Notes: a model not told the origin generated them from the letters alone. Positions 7,294-30,520 are shown, counted from the first letter of the stretch. The stretch is DNA of 32,000 nucleotides from Crocosphaera subtropica ATCC 51142 (GCF_000017845.1 NC_010546.1:1620001-1652000), one strand, 5' to 3'. Program-made: numbers and translations.

Positions 7294-8640
7294 TTAGAAA
7301 TAAATGTTATTACCAGTCCAATAAGGAGAGCTAATCACTAAAAATAAACTGACGTACATTCCCCATAATAAAACTGAAATAAATTGAGGATTACGTCGAA
7401 TAATTAAAGTAGAGGTGACTGCCCAAGTAAAAGCAATAGCCATTAAGGTGAGGATTAATAATAAACGATGGGACAGTAGGGTGAAATGGAAAGGAAAATT
7501 CAAAAAAATGCAAAGACTAATGAGACTAATGACCCCTGATAAGCTCAATAAAATTAATGGCCAAGATTGAGGATAAGGAATATCCTTAGGCCAATCATTG
7601 ACTTCACTCAACATCAGTCCACTGGCCAAGGCTACAGCAGGGTAAAAAGGTAACATATAACCCATAGTATCCAGAGGAAGAACACAAATGATTCCTCCAT
7701 AAAAACCACCCCAAACCAGAATTAATTTTGCCCATCCCCAGTTGAGGGATTTCCAGGCTAATCTTGTACCATAAATAGCAAATATCAACCAAGGCCAAGA
7801 ATATTTAATGGTCGCTAAGGGATAATAGGTCAAAGAGATAAAAAAGTTGTGCCAACCCCACTGCAATGAATGGAAAAAAACCTCATTTAAAAAAGGTTGT
7901 CCATAAACCAACCATTCCATCCAATACCAAGTTAAAGCCGGTAAAAAACCCAGACAAACACCTACCCAAAAGTAAATAGAACTTAACAGTCTTGGGGTAT
8001 CCCAAGCCAAGAAAATAATTAATAAAATGGTGACTAAACAGCCAATTAAGCCTTGAGTCAAGAATAACCCACTTAAACTTAAACCGACAGCCAACGACCA
8101 ACGAAAATCACGACGGGATCGTAATACACATAAGATGGTCAAAATCGACCAAAACAGGACAATACCATCTAACATGGCTAAACGGCTCCAACGAACCACC
8201 GGAAAGAGCATCAGGTAAATTAAGGCACTCAACACAGCCGGTCGCCAGAGGACAAAAATTTCCCGTGCTACTGCATACAATAACGGCACAGAAACCGAAG
8301 CAAATATAGCTCCTATAAAACGAATACGTCCGGGGGTTAACTCTTCTTTAACACCACCGATGGTTAATAGCAATAACCCCAAAACGGGATGTTGGTGATA
8401 GGGTTGACCGTCTAGATGAGGAAACAGCCAGTCTCCTGATAAAAAGGAGGTTTGTGCCATTTGTTGAGCCAATTGGCCAATAATCCGCTCTGAGTCCAAT
8501 AGAGGAGAACTATCTAGGTTAGATCCCAACAAAATTAGTGCGATCGCAAATAAACCGACCCAAGAACCCAGACTGCGCCAAGTGTTACTCCGTGGATATA
8601 AAGATTTTAAAGGATGCCAAGTAAATGTTTTCGAGTTCAT
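7294..8640 (-). CDS. GT-C fold glycosyltransferase (family 39/83, ArnT/PMT-like) integral membrane protein
   Basis: 448 aa and hydrophobic throughout. The first periplasmic-loop region LDSERIIGQLAQQM..SGDWLFPHLDGQPYHQHPVLG resembles the D/E-containing loop plus the P.....PPL pattern of ArnT/PMT_2 enzymes. Confidence 0.65.
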   Translation of the reverse strand: MNSKTFTWHPLKSLYPRSNTWRSLGSWVGLFAIALILLGSNLDSSPLLDSERIIGQLAQQMAQTSFLSGDWLFPHLDGQPYHQHPVLGLLLLTIGGVKEELTPGRIRFIGAIFASVSVPLLYAVAREIFVLWRPAVLSALIYLMLFPVVRWSRLAMLDGIVLFWSILTILCVLRSRRDFRWSLAVGLSLSGLFLTQGLIGCLVTILLIIFLAWDTPRLLSSIYFWVGVCLGFLPALTWYWMEWLVYGQPFLNEVFFHSLQWGWHNFFISLTYYPLATIKYSWPWLIFAIYGTRLAWKSLNWGWAKLILVWGGFYGGIICVLPLDTMGYMLPFYPAVALASGLMLSEVNDWPKDIPYPQSWPLILLSLSGVISLISLCIFLNFPFHFTLLSHRLLLILTLMAIAFTWAVTSTLIIRRNPQFISVLLWGMYVSLFLVISSPYWTGNNIYF

Positions 8641-8865
8641 AGGGATGGGAAGAGGTTAGCAATATAATTTAAAGATACGTTGTTCTTAATACCTGTTATA
8701 GATGAAGTACGAGAGGATGAAACCCTAATCCTACTCCATAAAAATCTTAATCTACTCCTTCAAAAACTGCACTGTCAATTTTGAAAAATCTTAATCCCTA
8801 GACGAGAAAATGGAATGCTATATTAAAGTACCTATAGATTAAGGCGATGGCCTCTGTCAAAAAAG

Positions 8866-10593
8866 ATGTTTGGTTTTATTGCTTCTTTTAAGTGTGTTTT
8901 TAATAAAAAGGTTAAATATTTAACCTTAGCAACCCTTGCAGCGAGTTTAGTGGTTTTTCCTGTCTATGCACAATCAAGACTAACAAGACTTGTTTTCATT
9001 TATCCTCCTCTTAATTTATCCTTGGGGATTGATTCATTAGAACTGTTTGCTAATGAAGGGGTGGTTAATAATGAATTAGCCTTTTATATGAATTTAGCAG
9101 GGGTCAATGAAGAGCAAAAAGAAGCCTTCCGACAAGCATTATTGAAAAAAGCCGATCTCGACCCGGTAGAAGTGTCCCGTTTCTTCAACACGCCTATGGG
9201 AGAAGAACTGTTAACCCGTGTGGGTAAGTTATTTTCTATTCAAGGGGGGCGCAATGGAAAATATGCCATGAGAGGGGCGATGGTTCAAGCTGCTTTTGAC
9301 GAAAAAGAAGGATTAACCTTGCTTAATTTTCTCCGTCATCTAGCGGTGAATATGCAGTTTAATCTCTTAGAAGTCTTTGAAGCTGCTAGTCTTCTTGAAC
9401 GTCTGGGAGAGGGAACGAACGCCATTGTTGCCGAAATGAAAACCTTATCTTCTCAACAAGCACAACTTGAGACGGTTCCTGATTTTTCTACATTAGGAGA
9501 TATTCGTCAACCGGGGGGCTATGGTGTTGCACCTTCCCGTCAGATTCGATTATTCGATGAAAGTCGTCAAAGGGAGTTTAATTTGTTGCTGGTGCAACCG
9601 CAACGATGGCGAGAGGGCAAAACCCCTGTTGTTATCTTGTCTCATGGGTTGGCTTCTCGTCCAGAAGATTTTGAACAACGGGCTAAACAGTTGGCTTCCT
9701 ATGGTTTTGTGGTGGCGTTACCTCAACATCCTGGTAGTGATTTTAATCAGTTACAGGCTATGTTACAAGGGTTTTCTAGGGAGGTTTTTAAGGTTAATGA
9801 ATTTATTGATCGTCCCCTGGATGTGAGTTATGTGATTGATGAATTAGAAAGAAGAAATAGCAGAGAATTTGGGGGACGGTTAGACTTAAATAATGTAGGA
9901 GTGATGGGTCATTCTTTTGGAGGATATAATGCTTTAGCGGTTGCCGGTGCTTCTCTAAATTTTGCTACTTTAGAAGCGACTTGTAATCAAGATATTTGGG
10001 GACCTAATCTTTCTTTATTATTACAATGTCGGGCGTTAGAATTACCTCGAAAAGACTATAATTTTCGAGATGAACGAGTCACTTCTGCTTTAGTGATTAA
10101 TCCTGTCACTAGCGCAGTTTTTGGGGCTGAAGGACTCTCTAGCGTAACCATTCCTGTTATGTTAGGCGCAGGTAGTAGTGATCCGGCAACGCCTGCGGCC
10201 ATTGAACAATTAAAAGCGTTTGTTTGGATTAATACAGATGATAAATATTTTGTCTTAGTGGAAGGACAGGCTCATGTTAACTTTTCTCAATTGGATGGTC
10301 AAATGCAAGCGGTATTAGATTCTTTACCAGAATTGAAGCTTCCTAAACAGCAAATTCTTGACACTTATGGCAATGCTTTATTAGTTGCTTTTTCTCAAGT
10401 TCATACCGCTAAGAATGAACAGTATCGTCCTTTTTTAAGTGCTAGTTATGGTAATTATATTAGTCGACAACCTAATCCGATGTATCTTGTAAGAAGTGAG
10501 GCTGAAGTTCCTTTAAGTGAGTTATTTAATAGTAGAAGAACTTCAAGACTTCCAGCCATTTATCCCCGTAATTTTATTCCTAATAATGACTGA
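8866..10593 (+). CDS. Secreted alpha/beta hydrolase with N-terminal DUF1400-like domain
   Basis: 575 aa with a signal-like LTLATLAASLVVFPVYAQS. The N-terminal region (LELFANEGVVNNELAFYMNLAG...) looks like the cyanobacterial DUF1400 module. The core is a serine hydrolase with the nucleophile elbow VMGHSFGG and an upstream VILSHGLASRPEDF. Confidence 0.75.
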   Translation: MFGFIASFKCVFNKKVKYLTLATLAASLVVFPVYAQSRLTRLVFIYPPLNLSLGIDSLELFANEGVVNNELAFYMNLAGVNEEQKEAFRQALLKKADLDPVEVSRFFNTPMGEELLTRVGKLFSIQGGRNGKYAMRGAMVQAAFDEKEGLTLLNFLRHLAVNMQFNLLEVFEAASLLERLGEGTNAIVAEMKTLSSQQAQLETVPDFSTLGDIRQPGGYGVAPSRQIRLFDESRQREFNLLLVQPQRWREGKTPVVILSHGLASRPEDFEQRAKQLASYGFVVALPQHPGSDFNQLQAMLQGFSREVFKVNEFIDRPLDVSYVIDELERRNSREFGGRLDLNNVGVMGHSFGGYNALAVAGASLNFATLEATCNQDIWGPNLSLLLQCRALELPRKDYNFRDERVTSALVINPVTSAVFGAEGLSSVTIPVMLGAGSSDPATPAAIEQLKAFVWINTDDKYFVLVEGQAHVNFSQLDGQMQAVLDSLPELKLPKQQILDTYGNALLVAFSQVHTAKNEQYRPFLSASYGNYISRQPNPMYLVRSEAEVPLSELFNSRRTSRLPAIYPRNFIPNND

Positions 10594-11371
10594 TTTAAAC
10601 CCTTCTGTTTATTTTATTGGTGCTGGACCCGGTGATCCAGATTTATTAACCTTAAAAGCATACAAAATTATTAGTCAAGCTGATGTTATTTTATACGCTG
10701 ATTCTTTGGTTCCTAAGCAAATTTTAAAAGATGTTCGTCAAGATTGTGAGTTAATTCCCACAGGCAATAAAACCCTAGAAGATATTATGAAAATCATGAT
10801 TAATCGGGTTAAAAATCATCAATCTGTGGTACGTCTTCACTCAGGGGATTTAACCCTTTATAGTGCCATTAATGAACAAATTTCGATTCTTATAAAAGAA
10901 AAAATTGACTTTGAATTAATACCAGGGATTAGTGCATTCCAAGCAGCAGCAGCAAAAATAGGGGCGGAATTAACGATTCCTGATTTAGTTCAGACGATTA
11001 TTTTAACCCGTGTTAGTGGCAGTGCCTCTCAAGTTCCTGATGCTGAAAAATTAGAAAGTTTAGCAGCCCATCAAGCGAGTTTATGTTTATATTTAGCTGC
11101 CCGTCATGTGAAAAAGTCTCAAGAAAAATTACTACAGTATTATCCTTCTAACACGCCTGTTGCTATTTGTTTTCGCATTGGTTGGCCGGATGAAACAATA
11201 CACATTGTTCCTTTAGAAAAAATGGCAGAAGTGACAGAAGAGGAAAATTTAATTAGGACAACTTTATATCTTATTAGCCCTGCTTTAAATACTCAGCAAA
11301 ATTATCGTTCTCAACTCTATCATCCTCAACATAGTCATCTATTTAGACCTAATACCAATTCTTTTTATTAA
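10586..11371 (+). CDS. cobM: Precorrin-4 / cobalt-precorrin-4 C11-methyltransferase
   Basis: MTDLNPSVYFIGAGPGDPDLLTLKA... is the canonical tetrapyrrole methylase N-terminus. I place the start at ATG 10586, not at the track's 10517, which lies inside the upstream gene. This ATG overlaps the upstream stop (ATGACTGA). The last 6 codons and the stop lie inside MITE copy A. Confidence 0.9.
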   Translation: MTDLNPSVYFIGAGPGDPDLLTLKAYKIISQADVILYADSLVPKQILKDVRQDCELIPTGNKTLEDIMKIMINRVKNHQSVVRLHSGDLTLYSAINEQISILIKEKIDFELIPGISAFQAAAAKIGAELTIPDLVQTIILTRVSGSASQVPDAEKLESLAAHQASLCLYLAARHVKKSQEKLLQYYPSNTPVAICFRIGWPDETIHIVPLEKMAEVTEEENLIRTTLYLISPALNTQQNYRSQLYHPQHSHLFRPNTNSFY

Positions 11372-18529: not shown

Positions 18530-18651
18530 TATGAGGATCATGATTTCTATGTCCGTTAACTGTTAAACAAGGTTTGCAAAATCCGGGTTACTCATGGATG
18601 AGCCTTAAAATAAAGGTGTTGATTGTTGACCATTCACTCAAAATAAAGCTC

Positions 18652-19833
18652 ATGACACAACCTTCGATCTATCATGCTTTGGGGCTACATATGCACCAAC
18701 CCCCTGGAAACCTTAAGCTTTTGATCGATCAGCACGAGTCAGAAGCAGAGCTTATTATTCGTTGTTACGAGAGAGTGGCTCGATATGCTCACTCCTTTCA
18801 AGATGTTGCTAATATTCACGTCGGTTTTTCAGGCATTCTCCTGGAACAGTTTCTTGATCCTGAAATAATTGACCGTTATGGTAAATTTATCGATATTCCG
18901 GCCATGTTGGATAGTTATCGCACTGCCAACAATATTGAATTAATTGGGATGGGATATTATCATCCTGTTTTTCCTTTGATTCCTCAAGAAGATTGGAAAG
19001 AGCATCTAATTCGTGGTCGTCAAATCATTGAACAGGTATTTGGTCGTTCTCCCAAAGGGTTTTGGCCGCCCGAAATGGCCTTTTGCATGGAAATGATTCC
19101 TGCGATCGCTGCTGCGGGCTATGAATATGTTGTTGTTGACGGCGTTCATGTGCAACCTGACAACGGACCAGGAGACATTTATCAGCCTTATCAAGCGACT
19201 TACGAGGGAACAACGATCACCATTATTCCTAGGGAACGAGATATTTCTAATGCCCAAGAAAGTGGCATGGATGCTATCTGGTTTTCTCAAGAAGTACAGC
19301 ATAAAGTCAAAAATTCTCTTAACCCAGAACAACCACGCTTAGTTACCACTTGGTCTGATGGAGAAAATGGGGGATGGTTTCGTCAAATGTCCGAAGAATC
19401 TGCTTTTTTTGGCCATTTTTTCAGCCCATTCATGAACCAGATCAAAAGTGGAGCCATCCCTATTCAATCTGTTTCTCTTTCTGCGTATATTAAACAACAT
19501 CCCCCCACCGAGTCGGCTTTTGTTCGCACTGGGGCCTGGAATGTTGGAACCACATCCGGTTTTGATTTTAGTCAATGGGCCGGGTCTGAGCAACAAAAAG
19601 AAGGAGCTAAAACTATTCATCAAGTCAGTGAACGTTATTGGCAGTTATGGGAGTCTAAGGAACAGTTACCCGAAGGCGGTCAAAAAACTCTCGAAGAGGC
19701 TAGAGAACTGATTTTAGAAGGGGAAACCAGTTGTTTTCTTTTTTGGGGAGATGAGTGGGTTCCCAAACTGTATGAAAGAACGGAACCAGCCTTGACACTT
19801 TTGAATCAATTAGAAGGGCCACTCAATTCGTGA
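18652..19833 (+). CDS. Glycoside hydrolase family 57 protein, short form
   Basis: The start is placed at ATG 18652 (MTQPSIYHALGLHMHQPPGN); the track's TTG at 18574 adds an unlikely 26 aa. GH57 conserved regions are recognisable: HQP (18694-18702), IELIGMGYYH, FWPPEMAF (candidate nucleophile Glu codon 19072-19074), TWSDGENGGW (candidate acid/base Asp codon 19357-19359) and a late ETSCFLFWG. Confidence 0.8.
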   Translation: MTQPSIYHALGLHMHQPPGNLKLLIDQHESEAELIIRCYERVARYAHSFQDVANIHVGFSGILLEQFLDPEIIDRYGKFIDIPAMLDSYRTANNIELIGMGYYHPVFPLIPQEDWKEHLIRGRQIIEQVFGRSPKGFWPPEMAFCMEMIPAIAAAGYEYVVVDGVHVQPDNGPGDIYQPYQATYEGTTITIIPRERDISNAQESGMDAIWFSQEVQHKVKNSLNPEQPRLVTTWSDGENGGWFRQMSEESAFFGHFFSPFMNQIKSGAIPIQSVSLSAYIKQHPPTESAFVRTGAWNVGTTSGFDFSQWAGSEQQKEGAKTIHQVSERYWQLWESKEQLPEGGQKTLEEARELILEGETSCFLFWGDEWVPKLYERTEPALTLLNQLEGPLNS

Positions 19834-20202: not shown

Positions 20203-22743
20203 CTAGTTATTAGCCCCATTAGGATTATATTCTTCAATTTTGATCTCTACAGGCTCAACATTCCAGATTTGTTCGCAATATTCAGCAATGGTACGATCAG
20301 AAGAGAATTTACCCATTCTTGCAGCATTTAATATGGCCATTCTCGTCCAGTTGTCTTGATCGAGATAAGCCTGACTAACCGCATCTTGACAGTCAACATA
20401 AGCTTGATAGTCAGCCATCAACATATAAGGATCATCATTCATTAACTGATCGACGATAGGCTGGAATAACTCACAGTTACCGTGACTAAAGTAACCGCTA
20501 GAAATGCGATCAATAACACCTTTCAAGTTACCGTTGTTGTGGTAGTAGTCACTGGGAGAATAACCCTGTGCCTTGCGATCGTAAACTTCTTGGGCAGTTA
20601 AACCAAACAAGAAGAAGTTCTCTGCGCCGGCTTCTTCGCGAATCTCGATATTTGCCCCATCTAACGTACCGATGGTTAACGCTCCATTCATGGCAAACTT
20701 CATATTACCGGTTCCAGAGGCTTCTTTACCCGCAGTGGAAATCTGTTCAGAGAGATCAGCCGCCGGATAAACCCGTTGACCCAAAGACACATTAAAGTTG
20801 GGCATAAAGACCACTTTTAAGCGTCCGCGAACATCGGGATCATTGTTAACCACATCAGCGACGGCGTTGACTAACTTAATAATTAATTTAGCCATGAAGT
20901 ATCCAGGGGCTGCTTTACCGCCGAATAGGAAGGTACGAGGGACATAATCACCGTTGGGATCATGTTTCATGCGGTTGTAGAGGTTAATGATTTCGAGAAC
21001 CATTAAATGCTGACGTTTGTATTCGTGAATGCGCTTGACCTGTATATCAAACATGGTGTTCGGGTCAATTTCGATGTTGCGATATTTCAACAGGTAAGCA
21101 GCTAAATCCCGTTTATTGGCCTGCTTAATTTCGTGCCATTGTTTGCGAAACTCAGCATCATCGACAAATTCCTCGAGTTTACGCATTTCGTCTAGGTTTT
21201 TTAACCAACCGTCGCCAATTTTTTCGGTGATTAATGAGGAGAGTCTGGGATTACTGAGTAAGATCCAGCGACGGGGAGTGACACCATTGGTTTTATTGTA
21301 GAATTTCTCTGGCCAGAGTCTAGCAAAGTATTTGAGGGTGTCTTGTTTGAGTAACTCGGTGTGTAAGGCCGCTACTCCATTAATCGCATGGGACCCTAGA
21401 CAAGCTAAGTTAGCCATACGGATTAATTTTTCGGATCGTTCTTCGATTAAGGAGATATTGCTGACTAACTCATCATCGTTGGGGAACCAGGTCCGAACAT
21501 TCTCTAAGAAGCGATAATTGAGTTCGTAGATGATTTCGAGGTGTCTGGGTAGTAATTCACCAAAAATAGTCACGGGCCAGCGTTCTAGGGCTTCTGGCAT
21601 TAAAGTATGGTTGGTATAAGCTAGGGTTTTGGTGGTGATTTCCCAGGCTTTATCCCAGGTATAGTCGTGTTTATCCACTAAGAGACGCATTAACTCCGCT
21701 ACGGCGACAGCCGGGTGGGTGTCGTTGAGTTGTACGGCAACTTTTTCAGGGAATTGATCTAAGTTGTCGTGGTTACGCAAGTGAATACGAATGAGGTCTT
21801 GCAGAGAAGCAGAAACAAAGAAATATTGTTGTTCTAGGCGTAATTTCCGTCCGGCTGGGGTGTTATCGTTGGGATACAGCACTTTGGAAATGGTTTCTGC
21901 CCCCATCTTTTCTTCTACGGCGCGATCGTAATGACCGGCGTTGAAGGCTTCAAAGTTAAAGGACTCACTGGCCTCTGCTTTCCACAGTCTTAAGGGGTTA
22001 ACGACGTTGGTTTTATAGCCCGGAACCGGGGTATCGTAGGGAATGGCTAAGATGGTGCGATCAGCTACCCAGAAGCTTTTGAGGTTACCATTGTCATCGT
22101 GGGTTTTCTCGGTGTGTCCCCCTAATTTGATTTCGACGGCTTCGTTGGGACGAGAGATTTCCCAGGGGTTCTCAAACCGTAACCAGTTGTCAGGAATTTC
22201 CACTTGCCAACCGTCTTGGATGGTTTGATGGAAAATACCAAACTCGTAGCGGATACCATAACCAATGGCCGGCATAGATAAGGAAGCTAAGGAGTCGAGA
22301 AAACAAGCAGCTAAACGACCTAATCCTCCGTTTCCGAGTCCTGGATCGGGTTCTTGTTCGATAATATCATCCATGTCTAGATCCATCTCTTCGATGATCT
22401 CTTTCATGGTGTTATATAATCCCAGGTTGACCATATTATTCCCCAACTGACGACCCATAAGGAATTCAGCCGAGAAATAAGAGACGATTTTAACTTCTTC
22501 TTTTTTGTATGTCTCGATGGTTTTTAAGAAGCGATGTAACAGGCGATCGCGGACTGTGTAAGATAGAGCAACATAATAATCTCGTAGGGATGCTTTAGAC
22601 CGATCAACCCCTTGAATGTAAAAAAGATGATCGAGAAATGCCCGTTTTAGGGTTTCTTTACTCATTCCTGTGCGATCATCTTCAATCTGAATGTTGGGGT
22701 TGTTGACGTTAGTGTTTTTGACTTTGGGACTTAATGTACTCAT
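20203..22743 (-). CDS. glgP: Glycogen/maltodextrin phosphorylase
   Basis: 846 aa. It has the PLP-lysine signature EASGTGNMKFAMNGALTIGTLDGANIEI, plus the GLGNGGLGRLAACFLDS and YTNHT.MPEALE motifs. Confidence 0.95.
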   Translation of the reverse strand: MSTLSPKVKNTNVNNPNIQIEDDRTGMSKETLKRAFLDHLFYIQGVDRSKASLRDYYVALSYTVRDRLLHRFLKTIETYKKEEVKIVSYFSAEFLMGRQLGNNMVNLGLYNTMKEIIEEMDLDMDDIIEQEPDPGLGNGGLGRLAACFLDSLASLSMPAIGYGIRYEFGIFHQTIQDGWQVEIPDNWLRFENPWEISRPNEAVEIKLGGHTEKTHDDNGNLKSFWVADRTILAIPYDTPVPGYKTNVVNPLRLWKAEASESFNFEAFNAGHYDRAVEEKMGAETISKVLYPNDNTPAGRKLRLEQQYFFVSASLQDLIRIHLRNHDNLDQFPEKVAVQLNDTHPAVAVAELMRLLVDKHDYTWDKAWEITTKTLAYTNHTLMPEALERWPVTIFGELLPRHLEIIYELNYRFLENVRTWFPNDDELVSNISLIEERSEKLIRMANLACLGSHAINGVAALHTELLKQDTLKYFARLWPEKFYNKTNGVTPRRWILLSNPRLSSLITEKIGDGWLKNLDEMRKLEEFVDDAEFRKQWHEIKQANKRDLAAYLLKYRNIEIDPNTMFDIQVKRIHEYKRQHLMVLEIINLYNRMKHDPNGDYVPRTFLFGGKAAPGYFMAKLIIKLVNAVADVVNNDPDVRGRLKVVFMPNFNVSLGQRVYPAADLSEQISTAGKEASGTGNMKFAMNGALTIGTLDGANIEIREEAGAENFFLFGLTAQEVYDRKAQGYSPSDYYHNNGNLKGVIDRISSGYFSHGNCELFQPIVDQLMNDDPYMLMADYQAYVDCQDAVSQAYLDQDNWTRMAILNAARMGKFSSDRTIAEYCEQIWNVEPVEIKIEEYNPNGANN

Positions 22744-24248: not shown

Positions 24249-25682
24249 TCACTGTTGAGTGCTTAAAGATGTGGTTTCTTTAACCTGGACTGAAGCGTCA
24301 GGAAAATAATTTTGCCAATCTTGACCTAAAACAATAGTAATATCAGAAGCTAAATTCCCTGTGCTTTCAACTAACACCTCCCCCACTCCTAAATCAGCCC
24401 GTAAGGTGGCTGCTCCGAGATCATCTCCACTTTGCGCTAAAATGCGAGTTGTTTCTAGGGTTTGAGGCCAATCATCGTCGACAAAAATGCGACGATAACC
24501 AGCTTGGCGTAAATAATTGACCATCCGCTGCACTGCTTCAGGATCTCCTGTACTATCTTGAATGGCAATTCGTAGGTTAGTGGAGTTGGTTGGTTCCATG
24601 TCAAAACTGGGTTGACCATGATCAAAATACTCGGCTACCATATTTTGGATTTGATAACGGTTAGGTAGCCAATAACTCACTTCGTGTTTACCATCCCCAC
24701 TAAAACGGCCAGGTAGCATTAACAGTTGAACATTGGAGCGTTTTGTTTGAGAGGCAAACCCTGATAAGGCTAGTAATTCTTCAACGGTTAAATTGGTATC
24801 GATATAAGAACTGATAATAGATAAAATTTCAGGTATTCTCAATAACGTTTGAGGCTTGAGGGCCTGTTCTACTAAAGCCCGCATAAACATTTGTTGCCGT
24901 TGTACTCGTCCAATATCCCCATAACGATCGTAACGAAATCGCAAAAAGGAAACCGCTTGTTCTCCATCTAAATGTTGTTCTCCTTCTTTGAGATCGATAT
25001 AAAGATGTTGACTATGATCGGTATATTTCATATCTTTGGGAACATAAACATTGACTCCACCCAAAGCATCGATAACTTTTTCAACCCCTTGAATATTGAC
25101 CCGTACATAACGGTCAACAGGGACTCCCCCTAATAATTCGCTCACGGTTTCGGCCGCTAAAGACGGACCGCCATAGTAGTTAGCTTCGTTAATTTTCTTG
25201 AGTTCATAATTAATGGTGGTTTGGGTATCTCTCGGAATCGATAAAAGACTAAGTTTGTTACTGAGGGGATCAAACCTGACCAACACCATAGTATCGGACA
25301 AACCCTTAAACGAATTAACTAAAGCGTGATATCCCAATTCTTCGGTGGGTTTTTCATCTATTTCAGAGGTTAAAACCTTAGTTCCTAACACCAGGACATT
25401 GACAGGACGACTTAACTCAGGAAGCCGTAAGTTTTTGTAAGAAATGGCCTCATCCTTACTAAAGACTTCTTCTTGTTCAGGGGTCAAAGAACTTTGCTGT
25501 AAAGGAGTCGTGGACAAAGAAACAGCGATAAAAGCCCCTGCTGCAGCCGATGTTAGGGACACAGCCGTCAGTCCTAAACTAATCAGCAACCAACTTAGGC
25601 CCTTGGGCTTTTTTTTCACAGAAGCGTTCTGTTGAGAACGATTTTTGGGATAGGTTTTTTTAACTGACACAGTTTTCCTCAC
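24249..25682 (-). CDS. LytR-CpsA-Psr (LCP) family cell-envelope protein with C-terminal LytR_C-like domain
   Basis: 477 aa with an N-terminal membrane anchor (LSWLLISLGLTAVSLTSAAAGAFIAV). The LCP core is VLVLGT...SDTMVLVRFDP..NKLSLLSIPRDT. The C-terminal part is LRIAIQDSTGDPEAVQRMVNYLRQAGYRRI. Confidence 0.85.
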   Translation of the reverse strand: MRKTVSVKKTYPKNRSQQNASVKKKPKGLSWLLISLGLTAVSLTSAAAGAFIAVSLSTTPLQQSSLTPEQEEVFSKDEAISYKNLRLPELSRPVNVLVLGTKVLTSEIDEKPTEELGYHALVNSFKGLSDTMVLVRFDPLSNKLSLLSIPRDTQTTINYELKKINEANYYGGPSLAAETVSELLGGVPVDRYVRVNIQGVEKVIDALGGVNVYVPKDMKYTDHSQHLYIDLKEGEQHLDGEQAVSFLRFRYDRYGDIGRVQRQQMFMRALVEQALKPQTLLRIPEILSIISSYIDTNLTVEELLALSGFASQTKRSNVQLLMLPGRFSGDGKHEVSYWLPNRYQIQNMVAEYFDHGQPSFDMEPTNSTNLRIAIQDSTGDPEAVQRMVNYLRQAGYRRIFVDDDWPQTLETTRILAQSGDDLGAATLRADLGVGEVLVESTGNLASDITIVLGQDWQNYFPDASVQVKETTSLSTQQ

Positions 25683-26108
25683 ACCTTAGATGTCGTCCAA
25701 ACTGGGTTAAATTGTACCAATAGGCAACTTTTAACCCTTACTACGACTATAACTTTTTTGTTTAGGACTATGACTCTACTGAGCCAATTATCTTATCATA
25801 GAGTTAGCGTGAACTACTCATTACACCAACGCATACGAGCTTCCTAGCCAATCAGCAGCTTTCTATCCCAAAGAATAGGAAGACTTACACCAAGGCGATA
25901 GGCTTAGCCCCACGGCAGGTAATCAAACGTTTTTTGATGTATATAGCTTGGTTATCGCTATTTACTGTCCGTGTAAAACTACAGTTGAATATAACACAGT
26001 GTTGCCTATACTTTCATTAGATACCTTAAAAGGAGTATTTCAAGCTTTAGTCTAAAATTTTTCCCTTTAACTTCAATTGACTTCTTACCATTGATAACTG
26101 ATTACGAT

Positions 26109-29009
26109 ATGACATCTATTATTGGTTCTTTGATTATTTTTTGTTTTTGTCCCTTATTAGGGGGACTGCCGTTAATTGATTGGTTAACTTATGGCTTGAA
26201 AGGACAGAAACTATCCCAATTAGGAACGGGTAATGTTTCTGTTTCTGCTGCTTTTTATCATGGGGGGACTTTAGTTGGTGTTTTGGCTGTCTTATCAGAG
26301 GCAGGAAAAGGTATTGTCGCTGTTTTACTGGCCCGCTATTTTTTCCCCTTTGAACCTTTTTGGGAAGTGATGGCATTAATCGCTTTAATTATAGGAAGAT
26401 ATTGGAGGGGAAAAGGGGCAGGAACTACTAATTTATTTTGGGGAATGATGGTTCATGATTGGGCTGCCACTTTCTTAACTGCCTTAATTGGTTTCACTAG
26501 CTTTACCATTTTTCGGGATAGGGTAACAGGACGTTTAGTGGCTTTATTCTTGTTAGCATTTATTTTAACGGTGAGACATCCCTATGATTTAGTCTATATT
26601 TTGTTAGCTTGGAGTTTATCAGGATTAATGGCCTGGATTTTTTATAAAATTCCTGATGATTTGTCTTTACCAGAAACCGGTGTAAAATCTTCTTCTAGAA
26701 CTATGTTTGCTTTCTTTCGTGGCGAAAAATCTCTTCTCTGTTTAAACGATAAATTAGAGGCCGATAAAGTTGGTCAAAAAGCTGCTAATCTGGCTTATCT
26801 AAGAAGTTTAGGTTATGGGGTTCCTAATGGTTGGATTTTGTTGCCTGGAGATGATCCTCAAACCCTATTAGATTATATTGATCCCAGTTTAGAACATCCT
26901 TTTGTTGTTCGTTCTTCTGCTATGGGAGAAGATACAGAAACTGCTTCAGCAGCAGGACAATATTTAACTCGGTTAAATATTACTAACCAAGAAGCATTAA
27001 AAGCAGCCATTTTTGATTGTTTGGCTGCGTATAACCATCCTCATGCTGTTAAATATCGTCGAGATAGAGGACAAAGCGATGAAGAGATTGCTTTATTAAT
27101 TCAAAAACAAATTGAAGGAACAGTTTCAGGGGTCGCCTTTAGTCGAGATCCGGTTAATCCTCTGAATAATTGTGTCATCATTGAAGCATTACCAGGGGCA
27201 GCTAATCAAATTGTTTCAGGTAAAATAACGCCCGAACAATATCAAGTAGAGGTCTATGACAAACTAGAAAATGATGTAATTAATATTAAAAAGATTCAGC
27301 AAATACCATCGAGAAATATTCCTGATTTTATTATAGAAAAAGTCGCTATTTTAGCTAGGAATATTGAAAACTTATATCATGGTATTCCTCAAGATATCGA
27401 ATGGACTTATGATGGAGAAGCTTTATGGATATTACAAACAAGAAGTATTACTAATTTACAACCGATTTGGACAAGAAAAATTGCTTCAGAAGTGATTCCA
27501 GGGGTCATTCGTCCTTTAACCTGGTCAATTAATCAACCTTTAACTTGTGGGGTATGGGGTGATATTTTTACCCTAGTTTTAAAAGAAAAAGCATCAGATT
27601 TAGATTTTGATCAAACTGCGACTTTACACTATCAACAAGCCTATTTTAATGCTACCTTACTAGGACAAATTTTCCGACGCATGGGACTTCCTCCAGAAAG
27701 TTTAGAATTTCTAACAAGAGGAGAAAAAATAACTAAACCTTCCTTAGCTTCTACCATCAGTAATTTACCTGGATTATGGCGTTTATTTACAAAAGAATGG
27801 ACATTAACCAAGGACTTTTGGCAAGATTATCGACAACGCTTTAAACCTCAATTAGAAAAACTACAGCATCAAGAAATTCAGCAATTATCGCCTCAAGAAT
27901 TATTGAAAAATATAGAAAAGATTTTATCTATATTAAAACCGACAACGTATTATAGTATTTTAGCTCCTTTGAGTTTATCTTTAAGACAAGCTTTACTCAA
28001 GGTATCTCCAGAACAATTAAATAATCATTCAACACCAGAGATTGCTGCATTACAAGCCTTAGAAAAGTTAGCTAATGAAATTACATCACTGATAGATGTA
28101 AAAAATATAAACACTGCTGAGGATTTATTCTCAGCTTTGGCACAAAATCAAAAAGGACAAAACCTAATCCAAAAATTTGATTTAATTGTAGAGAATTATG
28201 GCTATTTAAGCGATGTCGCTACTGATATTTCTATTCCTTGTTGGCGAGATCATCCAAATATCGTCAAAACCTTATTAACTCAGTTAACCCAGAATCATAG
28301 CCAGCGCAAGAATAATGTGAAAAAAAATAATAACAATTGGAGAATAAAAAATGTACAAAAACGATTGGATTTGAAAGGAAAAGTAACAGAAATTTATTCT
28401 CAGTTTTTAGCTCAATTACGGTGGCATTTTTTAGAATTAGCCGACTATTTAATAACAAAAGGAATCATTCAAGAATCTCAAGATATTTTTGAATTAACCT
28501 ATGCTGAAATTTTGGAACTAATGGAAGATGAGGACAAGAAAAATGATGCAGAATTAAACAAGAAAATAAAGCAAAGAAAACAGCAATTTGAAATTAATAA
28601 AAGCCTAAAACGCATTCCCTATATTGTCTATGGAAATATTGCCCCAATACCAGAAAATGAACCAGAGTTATCAAAAAGTTCCTATAGAAAATTCAAAGGA
28701 ATTGGTGCAAGTTTTGGACAAGTAGAAGGATACATCCGAATTTGTCGTAACTTTCAACAAATAGGAGAAATCAACAGTCAGACAATTCTAGTGATTCCTT
28801 ATGCTGACTCAGGGTGGGGTCCTTTACTCGCCAATGCAGGTGGTATCATAGCAGAGGTAGGAGGTGCCTTGTCTCACGGAGCAATTATTGCACGAGAATA
28901 CGGTATCCCTGCCGTTATGAATATTGACCATGCTACTGAAATCTTTCAAGAAGGTCAACGGGTAAAAATAGATGGACAACAAGGTATTATTGAACTATTA
29001 GAAAATTAA
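26109..29009 (+). CDS. Three-module fusion protein: PlsY-like polytopic membrane domain, PPDK_N-type ATP-grasp domain, helical middle region, and C-terminal PEP-utilizer swivel (phospho-His) domain
   Basis: I prefer ATG 26109 (MTSIIGSLIIF...) to the track's TTG at 26091. The PlsY-like motifs are GGLP, GTGNVSVSAAF (26223-26255) and IGRYWRGKGAGTTN (26391-26432). The ATP-grasp part runs from KVGQKAANLAYLRSLGYGVPNGW through VRSSAMGED, IQKQIEGTVSGVAFSRDP and DIEWTYDGEALWILQTRSIT. The swivel domain is GIGASFGQVEGYIRI...ILVIPYADSGWGPLLANAGGIIAEVGGALSHGAIIAREYGIPAV, with the His codon at 28875-28877. There is no PEP/pyruvate TIM-barrel domain. Confidence 0.85.
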   Translation: MTSIIGSLIIFCFCPLLGGLPLIDWLTYGLKGQKLSQLGTGNVSVSAAFYHGGTLVGVLAVLSEAGKGIVAVLLARYFFPFEPFWEVMALIALIIGRYWRGKGAGTTNLFWGMMVHDWAATFLTALIGFTSFTIFRDRVTGRLVALFLLAFILTVRHPYDLVYILLAWSLSGLMAWIFYKIPDDLSLPETGVKSSSRTMFAFFRGEKSLLCLNDKLEADKVGQKAANLAYLRSLGYGVPNGWILLPGDDPQTLLDYIDPSLEHPFVVRSSAMGEDTETASAAGQYLTRLNITNQEALKAAIFDCLAAYNHPHAVKYRRDRGQSDEEIALLIQKQIEGTVSGVAFSRDPVNPLNNCVIIEALPGAANQIVSGKITPEQYQVEVYDKLENDVINIKKIQQIPSRNIPDFIIEKVAILARNIENLYHGIPQDIEWTYDGEALWILQTRSITNLQPIWTRKIASEVIPGVIRPLTWSINQPLTCGVWGDIFTLVLKEKASDLDFDQTATLHYQQAYFNATLLGQIFRRMGLPPESLEFLTRGEKITKPSLASTISNLPGLWRLFTKEWTLTKDFWQDYRQRFKPQLEKLQHQEIQQLSPQELLKNIEKILSILKPTTYYSILAPLSLSLRQALLKVSPEQLNNHSTPEIAALQALEKLANEITSLIDVKNINTAEDLFSALAQNQKGQNLIQKFDLIVENYGYLSDVATDISIPCWRDHPNIVKTLLTQLTQNHSQRKNNVKKNNNNWRIKNVQKRLDLKGKVTEIYSQFLAQLRWHFLELADYLITKGIIQESQDIFELTYAEILELMEDEDKKNDAELNKKIKQRKQQFEINKSLKRIPYIVYGNIAPIPENEPELSKSSYRKFKGIGASFGQVEGYIRICRNFQQIGEINSQTILVIPYADSGWGPLLANAGGIIAEVGGALSHGAIIAREYGIPAVMNIDHATEIFQEGQRVKIDGQQGIIELLEN

Positions 29010-29020
29010 TTTGAAAAATT

Positions 29021-30520
29021 ATGGTTAAACTCTTCAAACAAACGATAAACATTAAAAATATATTTAAAAAACCTAACCAATTTGATTGGATAGTTATGGG
29101 TTGTATCTTATTGTTAACCCTAGGTATTTCAACTTTATTAGTTATGGGAGATCAAGTTCCTTTTAAAGTTAGATATTTTAGTTGGGAAGATAAAAAAGTA
29201 GGACTGAAAGATAAAACCTTTACCCTCAGTTTTAATCGTTCCGTTGATACGAATAGCGTAGAAAAAAATTTGATAATTGAACCTCCCCTTCCTGGAAAGA
29301 TTGCTTGGCAGGGAAGGACACTAATTTATACGTTAAATGATCCCCCTATTTATGGCACTAATTATCGAATAAAATTAGATAATGTTCAGCCAAGTTATAA
29401 AGATGAAACCCTTCAATCTTTTGTCAGTTTATTTAGTACCCGTGATCGAGTATTTGCCTATATTGGCATTGAAGGAGAAGAAAAAGGCCGCTTAATTTTA
29501 TATAATATTACTAATCTTGATAAACCTCAAAAAATTATTCTTACACCTGGAGATTTAGTTGTTACTAACTTCGAGATTTATCCTAATAGTGAAAAAATAC
29601 TTTTTAGTGCTTTTGAACCTGATATTCGGGGTCAAGGATTAGTGAGACAAGAACTGTATACAGTGACCACAGGGTTTAATGTTGATCCGTCAATAACTCC
29701 CTCTCAACGAGCAGGAAAACTCAAACGAATTCTAGATTCTCAAGAGTATAGAAATGTCAGTTTTGATCTCTCGAAAAATGGTAAAGTGATTGTCATTGAA
29801 CGAGAAAGTCACAGAAATAGTAATGATAGTAGTTTGTGGATAATTACTGAAGATAATAAACCCATATCTTTGGGAATTCCAGGATCTGAATTTGTGATTG
29901 CTCCCGATGGAAAACGCTTAGCCGTTGCTCAACAAGGAGGAGTCCGTATGGTTCCCTTGGGATCTAATGGAGGAACTTCTCGCATTTTTCAAAACTATGA
30001 AAAACCCCTTGGTTTTTCTGAAAATGGACAGAAACTTTTATTGGTTAAAGATAATATTGATTATACTCGTTCTCTAGTTTTGATCAATCAAGACGGAAAA
30101 AATAAAGAACTATTGCGGACTCCTTATCCCATTCTAGATTGTAAATTTGAACCCAGGAATGAACAAGACCTATACTGTTTAAAAACCGATATAATTCAAG
30201 GAGAAAATGGACAATATCGAGAAGAACCTTTTTTGTCAGTGGTGAACTTGAAAAAAGAAACAGATTTACCTTTATTAGCTTTACCTAATTATCGAGATGT
30301 GGTTTTGAGTATGTCTCCTGACGGGGTCGCTTTATTATTTGATCAGGTGGTTACCACTGTTCCTCAGTCTCCTTCTGATTTATTAACAACAGAACAAGAA
30401 GCGATCGCTGATGGACAAGTTTGGTTACTACCGTTACCAGATTTGAAAGAACAAAATAAATCTGTGAATATTAAACCACAAGAACTCATTTTTGGTTTTA
30501 AACCTCAATGGTTACCATAG
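29021..30520 (+). CDS. Membrane-anchored protein with Ig-like (SbsA/Big_5-type) domain and TolB-like beta-propeller region
   Basis: 499 aa, starting 11 bp after the upstream stop. The N-terminal anchor is FDWIVMGCILLLTLGISTLLVM. TFTLSFNRSVDTNSVEKNLIIEPPLPGKIAWQGRTLIYTLNDPPIYGTNYRIKL fits bacterial Ig-like domains. Later stretches (EKILFSAFEP, SFDLSKNGKVIVIE, IAPDGKRLAVAQ, FSENGQKLLLV, MSPDGVALLFD) look like PD40/WD40-like propeller blades. Confidence 0.65.
   Translation: MVKLFKQTINIKNIFKKPNQFDWIVMGCILLLTLGISTLLVMGDQVPFKVRYFSWEDKKVGLKDKTFTLSFNRSVDTNSVEKNLIIEPPLPGKIAWQGRTLIYTLNDPPIYGTNYRIKLDNVQPSYKDETLQSFVSLFSTRDRVFAYIGIEGEEKGRLILYNITNLDKPQKIILTPGDLVVTNFEIYPNSEKILFSAFEPDIRGQGLVRQELYTVTTGFNVDPSITPSQRAGKLKRILDSQEYRNVSFDLSKNGKVIVIERESHRNSNDSSLWIITEDNKPISLGIPGSEFVIAPDGKRLAVAQQGGVRMVPLGSNGGTSRIFQNYEKPLGFSENGQKLLLVKDNIDYTRSLVLINQDGKNKELLRTPYPILDCKFEPRNEQDLYCLKTDIIQGENGQYREEPFLSVVNLKKETDLPLLALPNYRDVVLSMSPDGVALLFDQVVTTVPQSPSDLLTTEQEAIADGQVWLLPLPDLKEQNKSVNIKPQELIFGFKPQWLP

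Follow-up and report, generated by a model that had tools for sequence, protein, structure and literature searches.

This report concerns one gene in a 32,000-nucleotide stretch of the genome of Crocosphaera subtropica ATCC 51142 (NC_010546.1:1620001-1652000), hereafter termed the window, in which positions are counted from the first letter. The gene encodes, in a single polypeptide, a membrane domain with the fold of PlsY, the enzyme that acylates glycerol-3-phosphate (G3P), followed by a soluble dikinase resembling rifampin phosphotransferase (RPH). The product is probably an uncharacterised enzyme that phosphorylates a membrane lipid. The gene and its parts are listed below; residue numbers given for canonical PlsY are those of the Aquifex protein, and residue equivalences derive from family alignments (34 members) and from hhalign comparison with canonical PlsY.

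26109..29009, plus strand: the whole fusion gene, 966 codons plus stop.
26109..26678, plus strand: PlsY-fold membrane domain, residues 1-190, with about seven hydrophobic or helical segments (PF02660, hhalign, Foldseek, hydropathy).
26160-26171, plus strand: GGLP motif.
26223..26258, plus strand: GTGNVSVSAAFY, the equivalent of PlsY residues 34-45, with Thr40, Asn42, Ser46, Ala47 and Tyr50 at the positions of Ser35, Asn37, Thr41, Asn42 and Arg45.
26394..26432, plus strand: GRYWRGKGAGTTN, the His92/phosphate-hole region, with Arg97 in place of His92 and a loop shortened by 5-7 residues.
26652..26663, plus strand: PDDL, residues 182-185, at the cytoplasmic end of the last transmembrane helix, the site of PlsY H177-x-x-N180.
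26679..26753, plus strand: linker with a conserved short helix, MFxFFRG, in which Phe200, Phe202 and Gly205 are invariant.
26754..27464, plus strand: ATP-grasp domain (PPDK_N, by Pfam), residues ~216-452, with invariant Lys224 and Arg268.
27465..28688, plus strand: central, mostly helical domain, residues 453-860, corresponding to the substrate-binding region of RPH and to Pfam Rph_4th.
28689..29006, plus strand: PEP-utilizers swivel phosphohistidine domain, residues 861-966 (Pfam, RPH alignment).
28875..28877, plus strand: codon of His923 within GGALSHG, the predicted phospho-carrier, aligned with RPH His825 and invariant across all 34 members.

The open reading frame (ORF) contains zero internal stops, and its translation is 100% identical to a protein of strain ATCC 51142. 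An in-frame TTG at 26091, 18 nucleotides 5' of the ATG at 26109, gives the 972-residue form of the NCBI annotation; among the homologues listed, Crocosphaera proteins of 966 residues have the length predicted from the ATG. A continuous fusion gene, with 49-84% identity to the window protein, is found in at least 80 cyanobacterial loci, and these span Chroococcales, Pleurocapsales, Oscillatoriales, Nostocales, Leptolyngbya-like and other cyanobacteria. Because the same continuous gene recurs in 80 loci from many orders, the fusion is genuine and neither an assembly nor a frameshift artefact. The single uninterrupted frame proposed in a sequence-only reading of this DNA is thereby borne out, the motif positions and histidine codon given there agree with ours, and the survey of cyanobacteria for which that reading called has found the fusion to be widespread. 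The databases name the protein "glycerol-3-phosphate acyltransferase", "pyruvate, water dikinase", "PEP/pyruvate-binding protein" or phosphoenolpyruvate (PEP) synthase. On present evidence, the names G3P acyltransferase and PEP synthase are wrong.

The relationship of the N-terminal domain to PlsY is supported by several lines of evidence. Pfam assigns residues 14-175 to PF02660 (G3P_acyltransf/PlsY) with 62 bits against a cut-off of 24.1 (E 9.9e-17), and hydropathy across the whole protein confines hydrophobic segments to residues 1-179. Comparison of the N-domain family with a canonical PlsY profile by hhalign yielded a probability of 98.6% (E 6.5e-16) at 16% identity. An AlphaFold model of residues 1-214 (predicted local distance difference test, pLDDT, 83.7; predicted TM-score, pTM, 0.82) had five PlsY chains as its sole significant Foldseek matches in the PDB (TM 0.64-0.74, E 9e-5 to 7e-4), the next match lying at E > 2. 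The full-length model matched PlsY structures with TM 0.67-0.70, normalised to PlsY. By phmmer, the N-domain alone found no match among PDB sequences; thus, its homology to PlsY is visible by Pfam, hhalign and fold comparison, not by a sequence-only PDB search. A search of 1.84 billion representative sequences with the N-domain returned only 117 proteins at E <= 1e-3, among which canonical PlsY proteins of ~200 residues appeared only at E 1e-8 to 1e-4. The best PlsY-type NCBIfam match was PRK14416, at 26.9 bits against a cut-off of 222 (the only such family among the 25 of 35 families listed). The N-domain is a distant and distinct branch of the PlsY superfamily.

The sequence-only reading had called this polytopic N-terminus PlsY-like, which the Pfam, hydropathy and fold results confirm, and its motifs degenerate, which is misleading. 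Mean column identity is 70-73% in the N-domain versus 64% in the whole protein, and many polar residues are invariant. For these reasons, the domain is divergent but not decaying, with purifying selection on it at least as strong as on the soluble part.

The residues that are kept and lost can be read against the PlsY structures. In Aquifex PlsY the phosphate of the acyl-phosphate is held in a "phosphate hole" formed by the backbone amides of Lys104-Ala107, His92 and two helix dipoles; the acyl carbonyl is bound by the Ala40 and Thr41 amides together with the hydroxyl of Thr41, and the oxyanion is stabilised by Asn37 (PMC5700162). G3P is bound by Ser35, Arg45, Lys104 and Asn180, with contacts to its 2-OH from Ser142 and His177 (PMC5700162). 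The fusion family appears to retain the acyl-phosphate half-site, and the G3P half-site is largely replaced, four of the six G3P residues being changed. Asn37 and Thr41 correspond to the invariant Asn42 and Ser46, and the T41S variant of PlsY retains 45% activity (PMC5700162). Loop3 of the phosphate hole is present as a shortened Gly-rich loop, GxGAGTTN, and the replacement of His92 by arginine, suspected from the sequence at the outset, is real: the position is that of Aquifex His92 and Arg97 is invariant. On the G3P side, Ser35 is conservatively replaced by Thr40, the clamp residue Arg45 is lost to Tyr50, Ser142 becomes Arg142, His177 becomes a variable Gln/Tyr179 and Asn180 becomes Pro182. 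The counterpart of Lys104, which serves both clamp and phosphate hole, is ambiguous (Ala104 or Gly103 by alignment); Lys102, present in 30 of 34 sequences and not invariant, lies one or two positions off, depending on the alignment.

The C-terminal HxxN motif of PlsY, which the sequence-only reading had left unconsidered, is replaced by PDDL, with Asp183, Asp184 and Leu185 invariant. New invariant polar residues in the domain are His51, Glu86, His116/Asp117 and Asp183/Asp184, and the former clamp region carries the invariant set Tyr50, His51, His116/Asp117 and Asp183/Asp184. Arg136, also invariant, matches a conserved arginine of canonical PlsY. The Asp183/Asp184 pair could constitute a Mg2+ site or a docking site. 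Since Arg45, Ser142, His177 and Asn180 are replaced and HxxN has given way to PDDL, acylation of G3P by the PlsY-like domain is unlikely. The functional idea of the sequence-only reading had started from the binding of both acyl-phosphate and G3P by PlsY: the acyl-phosphate side appears to be kept, and the G3P set is largely gone.

A canonical plsY gene accompanies the fusion in at least one genome. In locus L038, a plsY of 212 codons with every motif intact (786-1424) lies 6.5 kb from the fusion gene (8001-10925) on the same contig, the one locus for which coexistence on a contig was demonstrated. A search with this PlsY, covering its 120 closest relatives, mostly from Pleurocapsales, gave canonical PlsY proteins at least 73% identical among the matches listed; those named by organism were cyanobacterial. 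Published work lends support to coexistence, and the Synechocystis PlsY, Sll1973, has been reported to be essential (PMC10114076). The canonical gene on the L038 contig is consistent with the fusion protein not being a G3P acyltransferase.

Pfam, alignments and Foldseek agree on the order of modules in the soluble part, namely ATP-grasp, helical middle region and swivel histidine domain as in RPH, just as the sequence-only reading had it. PF01326 (PPDK_N) matches residues 262-451 (E 4.4e-39) and PF00391 (PEP-utilizers) residues 889-959 (E 7.2e-21), so that, together with PF02660, all three families named beforehand gave significant hits. The PEP/pyruvate TIM barrel (PEP-utilizers_C, PF02896) has no Pfam match at E <= 1 in the window protein, and Rph_4th (PF27448) occurs in the precomputed Pfam annotation of homologues. 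His923 stands within the invariant block GGxLSHGAIxAREYGIPA. Lys224 is the invariant lysine of an N-terminal GxKAA motif and, by motif position rather than alignment, the presumed equivalent of Lys22 of RPH and pyruvate phosphate dikinase (PPDK). An RSSA motif with invariant Arg268 aligns with RPH residues 116-119, and Arg268 is probably the equivalent of RPH Arg117; Arg268-Ser-Ser and Glu274/Asp275 are likewise invariant. With its predicted catalytic residues intact and invariant, the soluble part looks catalytically competent.

Region 455-832 is modelled as almost wholly helical by AlphaFold, and conservation within the family is strongest in the central domain (453-860). On its own, this domain found no match by phmmer among PDB sequences, RPH included. 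The region around RPH Arg666-Glu667 aligns poorly; Thr760-Glu761 (28/34 and 27/34 sequences) is a candidate counterpart by an uncertain alignment, and Arg752, Lys756 and Arg771 in the same poorly aligning region are invariant. In the full-length AlphaFold model (pLDDT 74, pTM 0.50), Foldseek matched Listeria RPH over ~900 columns (E 2.8e-28), and the fold searches thus assign residues 1-190 to PlsY only (TM ~0.7) and the remainder to RPH. Listeria RPH entries are also the closest solved relatives by sequence (E 9e-48; 1.5e-76 with the family profile). Among NCBIfam models the soluble part is nearest to RPH-like "PRK06241 PEP synthase" subfamilies, PigC/RedH and RPH, with 200-260 bits against cut-offs of 850-1350; because these scores are far under the cut-offs, it belongs to none of these RPH-like families.

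The PlsY-like and dikinase parts also occur as separate, adjacent genes. In a Gloeobacterales metagenome-assembled genome (L081), a PlsY-like gene of 223 codons overlaps by 4 nucleotides a 767-codon gene with PPDK_N, Rph_4th and PEP-utilizers domains, and a second independent assembly contains the same short PlsY-like protein. A 7.6-Mb cyanobacterial genome (L082) and a second independent assembly carry genes of 197 and 750 codons with a 14-nucleotide overlap and the linker missing, a split that cannot be a frameshift artefact. The split Gloeobacterales PlsY-like protein still carries the linker helix C-terminally, and the L082 form lacks it. In both cases the PlsY-like gene comes first, and the soluble partners show 41% and 44% identity to the fusion over its residues 209-966. 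A search seeded with a distant fusion (P0205) uncovered a second clade of fusions of ~1000 residues. The hosts of P0205 and its relative P0384 encode GreA, and hence are probably not cyanobacteria. The same search retrieved a large clade of unfused dikinases of ~780 residues, whose few named members are mostly from Chloroflexota. All four unfused Chloroflexota dikinase loci checked have a PF02660 gene in the same operon: directly downstream of the dikinase gene in L087 and L088 and directly upstream of it in L091. In L092 it is upstream too, separated from the dikinase gene by one for an alpha/beta-hydrolase. Fusion is thus the form seen in most cyanobacteria, and Gloeobacterales and Chloroflexota have the split form.

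As the two partners occur both as one fused protein and as separate genes, the latter in either order, and do so in at least two phyla, the comparative evidence is strong that the RPH-like dikinase and the PlsY-fold protein act together. This pairing also argues against the N-domain being a mere anchor. Two further proteins touch on the distribution of the family. On a contig labelled Candidatus Sericytochromatia (L041, 1924-4938), a fusion is 52% identical to the query, as close as true cyanobacterial ones; the contig could have been mis-binned, or a non-photosynthetic relative could really carry the gene. In Chloroflexota, a PlsY-like protein that stands alone (P0223; L084, 6001-6639) has a C-terminal DD motif and lacks His92. 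Its locus is a Wzy_C / LPG_synthase_TM / GT4 glycosyltransferase cluster with no dikinase, and P0223 was set aside as probably another repurposed PlsY subfamily.

The reading we favour, to which we give about an even chance, is that the fusion protein is a membrane-integrated water dikinase of the RPH type, in which His923 carries the beta-phosphate of ATP to a lipid bound in the PlsY-like module. From ATP and rifampin, RPH forms AMP, inorganic phosphate and phospho-rifampin; its His825 attacks the beta-phosphate, and the swivel domain moves more than 40 Å between two sites (PMC4844700). By homology, the cytoplasmic ATP-grasp domain of the fusion would bind ATP, His923 on the swivel domain would attack the beta-phosphate with release of AMP and inorganic phosphate, and the phospho-His domain would then swing to a second site and hand the phosphate to an acceptor. 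We infer this direction of phosphate flow, and that the acceptor is an amphiphilic membrane molecule at the cytoplasmic face, held by the PlsY-fold domain together with the central Rph-like helical domain. PlsY has seven transmembrane helices, and its C-terminal motif (His177, Asn180) is cytoplasmic (PMC5700162). The odd number of helices puts the termini on opposite faces, and the cytoplasmic location of the C-terminal motif fits ATP-using domains in the cytoplasm.

Given that the cyanobacterial family keeps the residues that bind the carbonyl and the oxyanion, the leading candidate substrate is an acyl compound: a fatty acid would be converted to an acyl-phosphate, made or held in the PlsY-like pocket, possibly followed by acyl transfer to an acceptor other than G3P. 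Alternatively, a lipid hydroxyl would be converted to a lipid phosphate. A precedent for an acyl-phosphate partner fused to PlsY is provided by PlsY-DegV (FakB-like) fusions in Anaerolineae (PMC5700162). The sequence-only reading had envisaged that ATP drives the phosphorylation of a lipid, or that an acyl or lipid phosphate is produced on site; this idea is plausible, and is strengthened by the conserved split gene pairs. More tentatively, and with less confidence than the mechanism itself, we suggest that the PlsY-like and RPH-like pair may form an unrecognised class of lipid-directed water dikinases, in which the phosphate enters the PlsY-derived phosphate hole to give a lipid phosphate.

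Several observations weigh against this mechanism. The position of PlsY His92 is occupied by arginine in cyanobacteria, by histidine in the Chloroflexota partners and by threonine or alanine in the second fusion clade. Motif 1 is missing from the Chloroflexota partners, which keep His92 and an FxGGRG loop. All partner types share the PlsY fold and its Gly-rich loop, and none has the G3P motifs Arg45 and HxxN (His177/Asn180), but since they differ at key positions, one shared chemistry in the PlsY-like pocket is not established. Two 958-residue fusions (P0139, P0164) lack the GTGNxSVSAAF stretch and keep the remainder of the PlsY-like domain, and the pocket may be further degenerate in some lineages. 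The extremely conserved central domain could hold the whole acceptor site, as in RPH, the PlsY-like part playing a lesser role. The inter-domain geometry of the full-length model is uncertain, as its pTM indicates, and neither the 80 loci nor the distant fusion loci show a conserved neighbourhood beyond the pair that would point to a pathway. The known swivel-histidine dikinases act on hydroxyl or enol oxygens, and we know of none shown to phosphorylate a carboxylate. Moreover, cyanobacteria have been reported to activate free fatty acids via Aas (PMC10114076), and hence have no obvious need for a fatty-acid kinase. The acceptor may be a lipid hydroxyl, or may be bound chiefly by the central domain.

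A narrower form of the favoured hypothesis couples activation to transfer: the dikinase would make an acyl-phosphate, and the PlsY-like domain would acylate an acceptor other than G3P, such as another lipid head group or a lyso-lipid. We consider this rather unlikely. It would account for the invariance of Ser46 and Asn42 in the cyanobacterial family, besides the phosphate loop, and for the exchange of the G3P clamp for a different invariant set. The PlsY-FakB-like fusions show selection for channelling acyl-phosphate to PlsY-type proteins, and the alpha/beta-hydrolase gene between the partners in L092 would be in keeping with such a reaction. However, motif 1 is absent from the Chloroflexota partners, there is no known candidate acceptor, and the two objections concerning carboxylate phosphorylation and Aas bear directly on this version.

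Next in probability, and in our view doubtful, is that the PlsY-like domain serves only as a tether, with the RPH-like part phosphorylating a hydrophobic small molecule (a xenobiotic, antibiotic, pigment or secondary metabolite) in its central domain. The closest characterised relatives, RPH, PigC/HapC and HpeHI, do bind their acceptors in the helical domain, the corresponding domain of the fusion is very highly conserved, and in two Chloroflexota loci the pair lies beside genes of MacB-type ABC transporters. Yet a tether needs no specific seven-helix fold, kept across two phyla as a separate co-operonic gene, and neither the column identity of the N-domain nor invariant polar residues at PlsY active-site positions would be expected. 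Furthermore, the cyanobacterial gene is widespread, is the sole copy in each locus examined and lies outside biosynthetic and resistance clusters.

The remaining explanations are much less probable. A PigC-like, ATP-dependent ligase, in which phosphorylation activates the carbonyl of a membrane-bound substrate for condensation and no stable phosphate ester results, would be quite improbable. The NCBIfam models of PigC (220.1 bits) and RedH (206.8 bits) score about equal to the RPH model, and the PigC/HapC mechanism has a phosphorylated intermediate, but both scores are far under the equivalog cut-offs of 1300 and 1350, and no pyrrole or prodiginine-type genes lie nearby. Less probable again is a signalling or regulatory role, with the PlsY-like domain acting as a sensor of a membrane lipid or acyl-phosphate and governing the transfer of phosphate from the swivel histidine to a protein. 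Enzyme I of the phosphotransferase system, which phosphorylates a protein, shares the swivel-His domain (weak matches); however, no phospho-acceptor partner protein is conserved nearby, and the overall architecture is that of small-molecule dikinases. Finally, the annotation at face value, a true PlsY G3P acyltransferase fused to a PEP synthase or PPDK, is the least credible of all, since beyond the database names and the matches to PF02660 and PPDK_N it is contradicted by the replaced G3P residues and HxxN motif, the low PRK14416 score, the canonical plsY on the contig of L038 and the reportedly essential Sll1973, the absence of a TIM barrel, and PEP synthase scores of 161.8 bits (TIGR01418, cut-off 739.75) and 169.9 bits (PRK06464, cut-off 598).

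Around the fusion gene, the window contains the following genes.

29021..30520, plus strand: ORF of 499 codons with an N-terminal hydrophobic helix, beginning 12 nucleotides past the fusion stop.
24249-25682, minus strand: LytR-CpsA-Psr (LCP) protein with a LytR_C domain, divergent from the fusion gene across a 426-bp spacer.
20203-22743, minus strand: glycogen phosphorylase (GlgP), glycogen metabolism, upstream and unrelated to the fusion.
18574-19833, plus strand: GH57 glycoside hydrolase, glycogen metabolism, upstream and unrelated to the fusion.

The 499-codon ORF has no Pfam or NCBIfam match. It adjoins the fusion gene only in the Crocosphaera/Cyanothece loci L001-L007, one distant homologue lying 5 kb off in L021; it is probably co-transcribed with the fusion gene and probably outside the conserved module. 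The adjacency of the LCP gene is kept in only two Crocosphaera loci. In general, the neighbours in the window (LCP, the 499-codon ORF, CobK, DUF2470, a response regulator and GlgP) are conserved beside the fusion only within Crocosphaera/Cyanothece. All-against-all clustering of the flanking ORFs of the 80 loci found lineage-specific neighbours only, namely a DUF21/CBS/CorC-type gene 19-107 nucleotides downstream of the fusion in 11 Pleurocapsales loci (L013-L065) and an SGNH-hydrolase-like gene divergently upstream in 14 Nostocales loci (L049-L080).

The distant fusion loci have no consistent neighbours. A ferrochelatase gene adjoins three distant, probably non-cyanobacterial fusions (L086, 11375-12598; L090, 10002-11231; L094, 4423-5991), which may be coincidence, since two of the three loci are closely related. 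In the Chloroflexota loci L087 (3305-11341) and L092 (5504-12697), the pair lies amid or before MacB-type ABC transporter genes (HlyD-like adaptor, ABC_tran, MacB_PCD/FtsX), and these neighbours may connect it with a lipidic compound that is exported or remodelled. Shortly downstream of the Gloeobacterales split pair, on the opposite strand, are SQS_PSY phytoene-synthase-like and amine-oxidase/desaturase-like genes (L081, 9761-11993, minus strand).

Among characterised enzymes, RPH is the nearest to the soluble part. Listeria RPH (RPH-Lm, PDB 5HV1/5FBS) and the wider PRK06241 dikinases have the same order of ATP-grasp, helical substrate domain and C-terminal swivel histidine; the catalytic histidine and the ATP-grasp lysine and arginine are conserved, Rph_4th is present, and RPH is the top match in sequence and fold. 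In contrast, the fusion protein scores only 210.8 bits against the equivalog cut-off of 999 for RPH (NF041857), its central domain is similar at the level of profile and fold only, and Arg666-Glu667 are not clearly kept. Rifamycin phosphorylation or resistance is unlikely for the fusion protein, because the central domain alone gave no sequence match to RPH. Unlike RPH, the protein is membrane-integrated by, or paired with, an additional PlsY-fold module, and is widespread in cyanobacteria instead of showing the sporadic pattern of a resistance gene. With PEP synthase and PPDK it shares the ATP-grasp and phospho-His swivel domains and, by homology, a dikinase chemistry yielding AMP and inorganic phosphate; it differs from them in lacking the TIM barrel and in its C-terminal, not central, His domain.

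The likeness to Aquifex aeolicus PlsY (PDB 5XJ5-5XJ8) comprises the seven-transmembrane fold, PF02660, Asn37, Thr41 (as serine), a (D/E)xxKG motif, the Gly-rich loop and the equivalent of Arg136, as opposed to an identity of ~16-17%, the replacement of His92 by arginine, the shortened loop and the replaced G3P residues and HxxN. The phenolic dikinases HpeHI, CreHI and PpsAB illustrate that dikinase modules split across polypeptides still work via a swivel histidine, and the HpeI ATP-grasp component (9goj) matches the fusion protein in fold and sequence. In these systems, however, the ATP-grasp domain is separated from the His/substrate part and all components are soluble, whereas the extra component here is a membrane PlsY-fold protein. 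FakA/FakB and the Anaerolineae PlsY-DegV fusions offer a functional analogy only, namely an acyl-phosphate partner coupled to a PlsY-type protein (PMC5700162); they have no homology to the dikinase part, and the PlsY of the PlsY-DegV fusions is canonical.

Literature searches on the fusion, PlsY-like domains, the Pfam pair and the annotation phrases found no paper on the family, in agreement with the initial impression that no characterised protein has this architecture. The authors of the PlsY structures had searched for fusions of PlsY, and PlsY-DegV was the only one they reported (PMC5700162). The domain architecture as such is already displayed in domain databases; what is new is an RPH-type dikinase with an integral-membrane, PlsY-derived partner. 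To our knowledge, every characterised swivel-histidine dikinase is a soluble enzyme whose substrates are soluble or diffuse freely.

In cyanobacteria, some steps of membrane-lipid metabolism are still unassigned. A dikinase hard-wired to an integral-membrane substrate module would extend the swivel-histidine class to lipids, and would show the PlsY fold redeployed for chemistry other than the acylation of G3P. The pair, in its fused and split forms, provides a clean, testable system, with two proteins, one predicted phospho-histidine and few invariant pocket residues. If the proposal is true, the most interesting case would be the formation of acyl-phosphate straight from free fatty acid; this would either supply the PlsY substrate independently of PlsX, FakAB and Aas or initiate a new acyl-transfer reaction.

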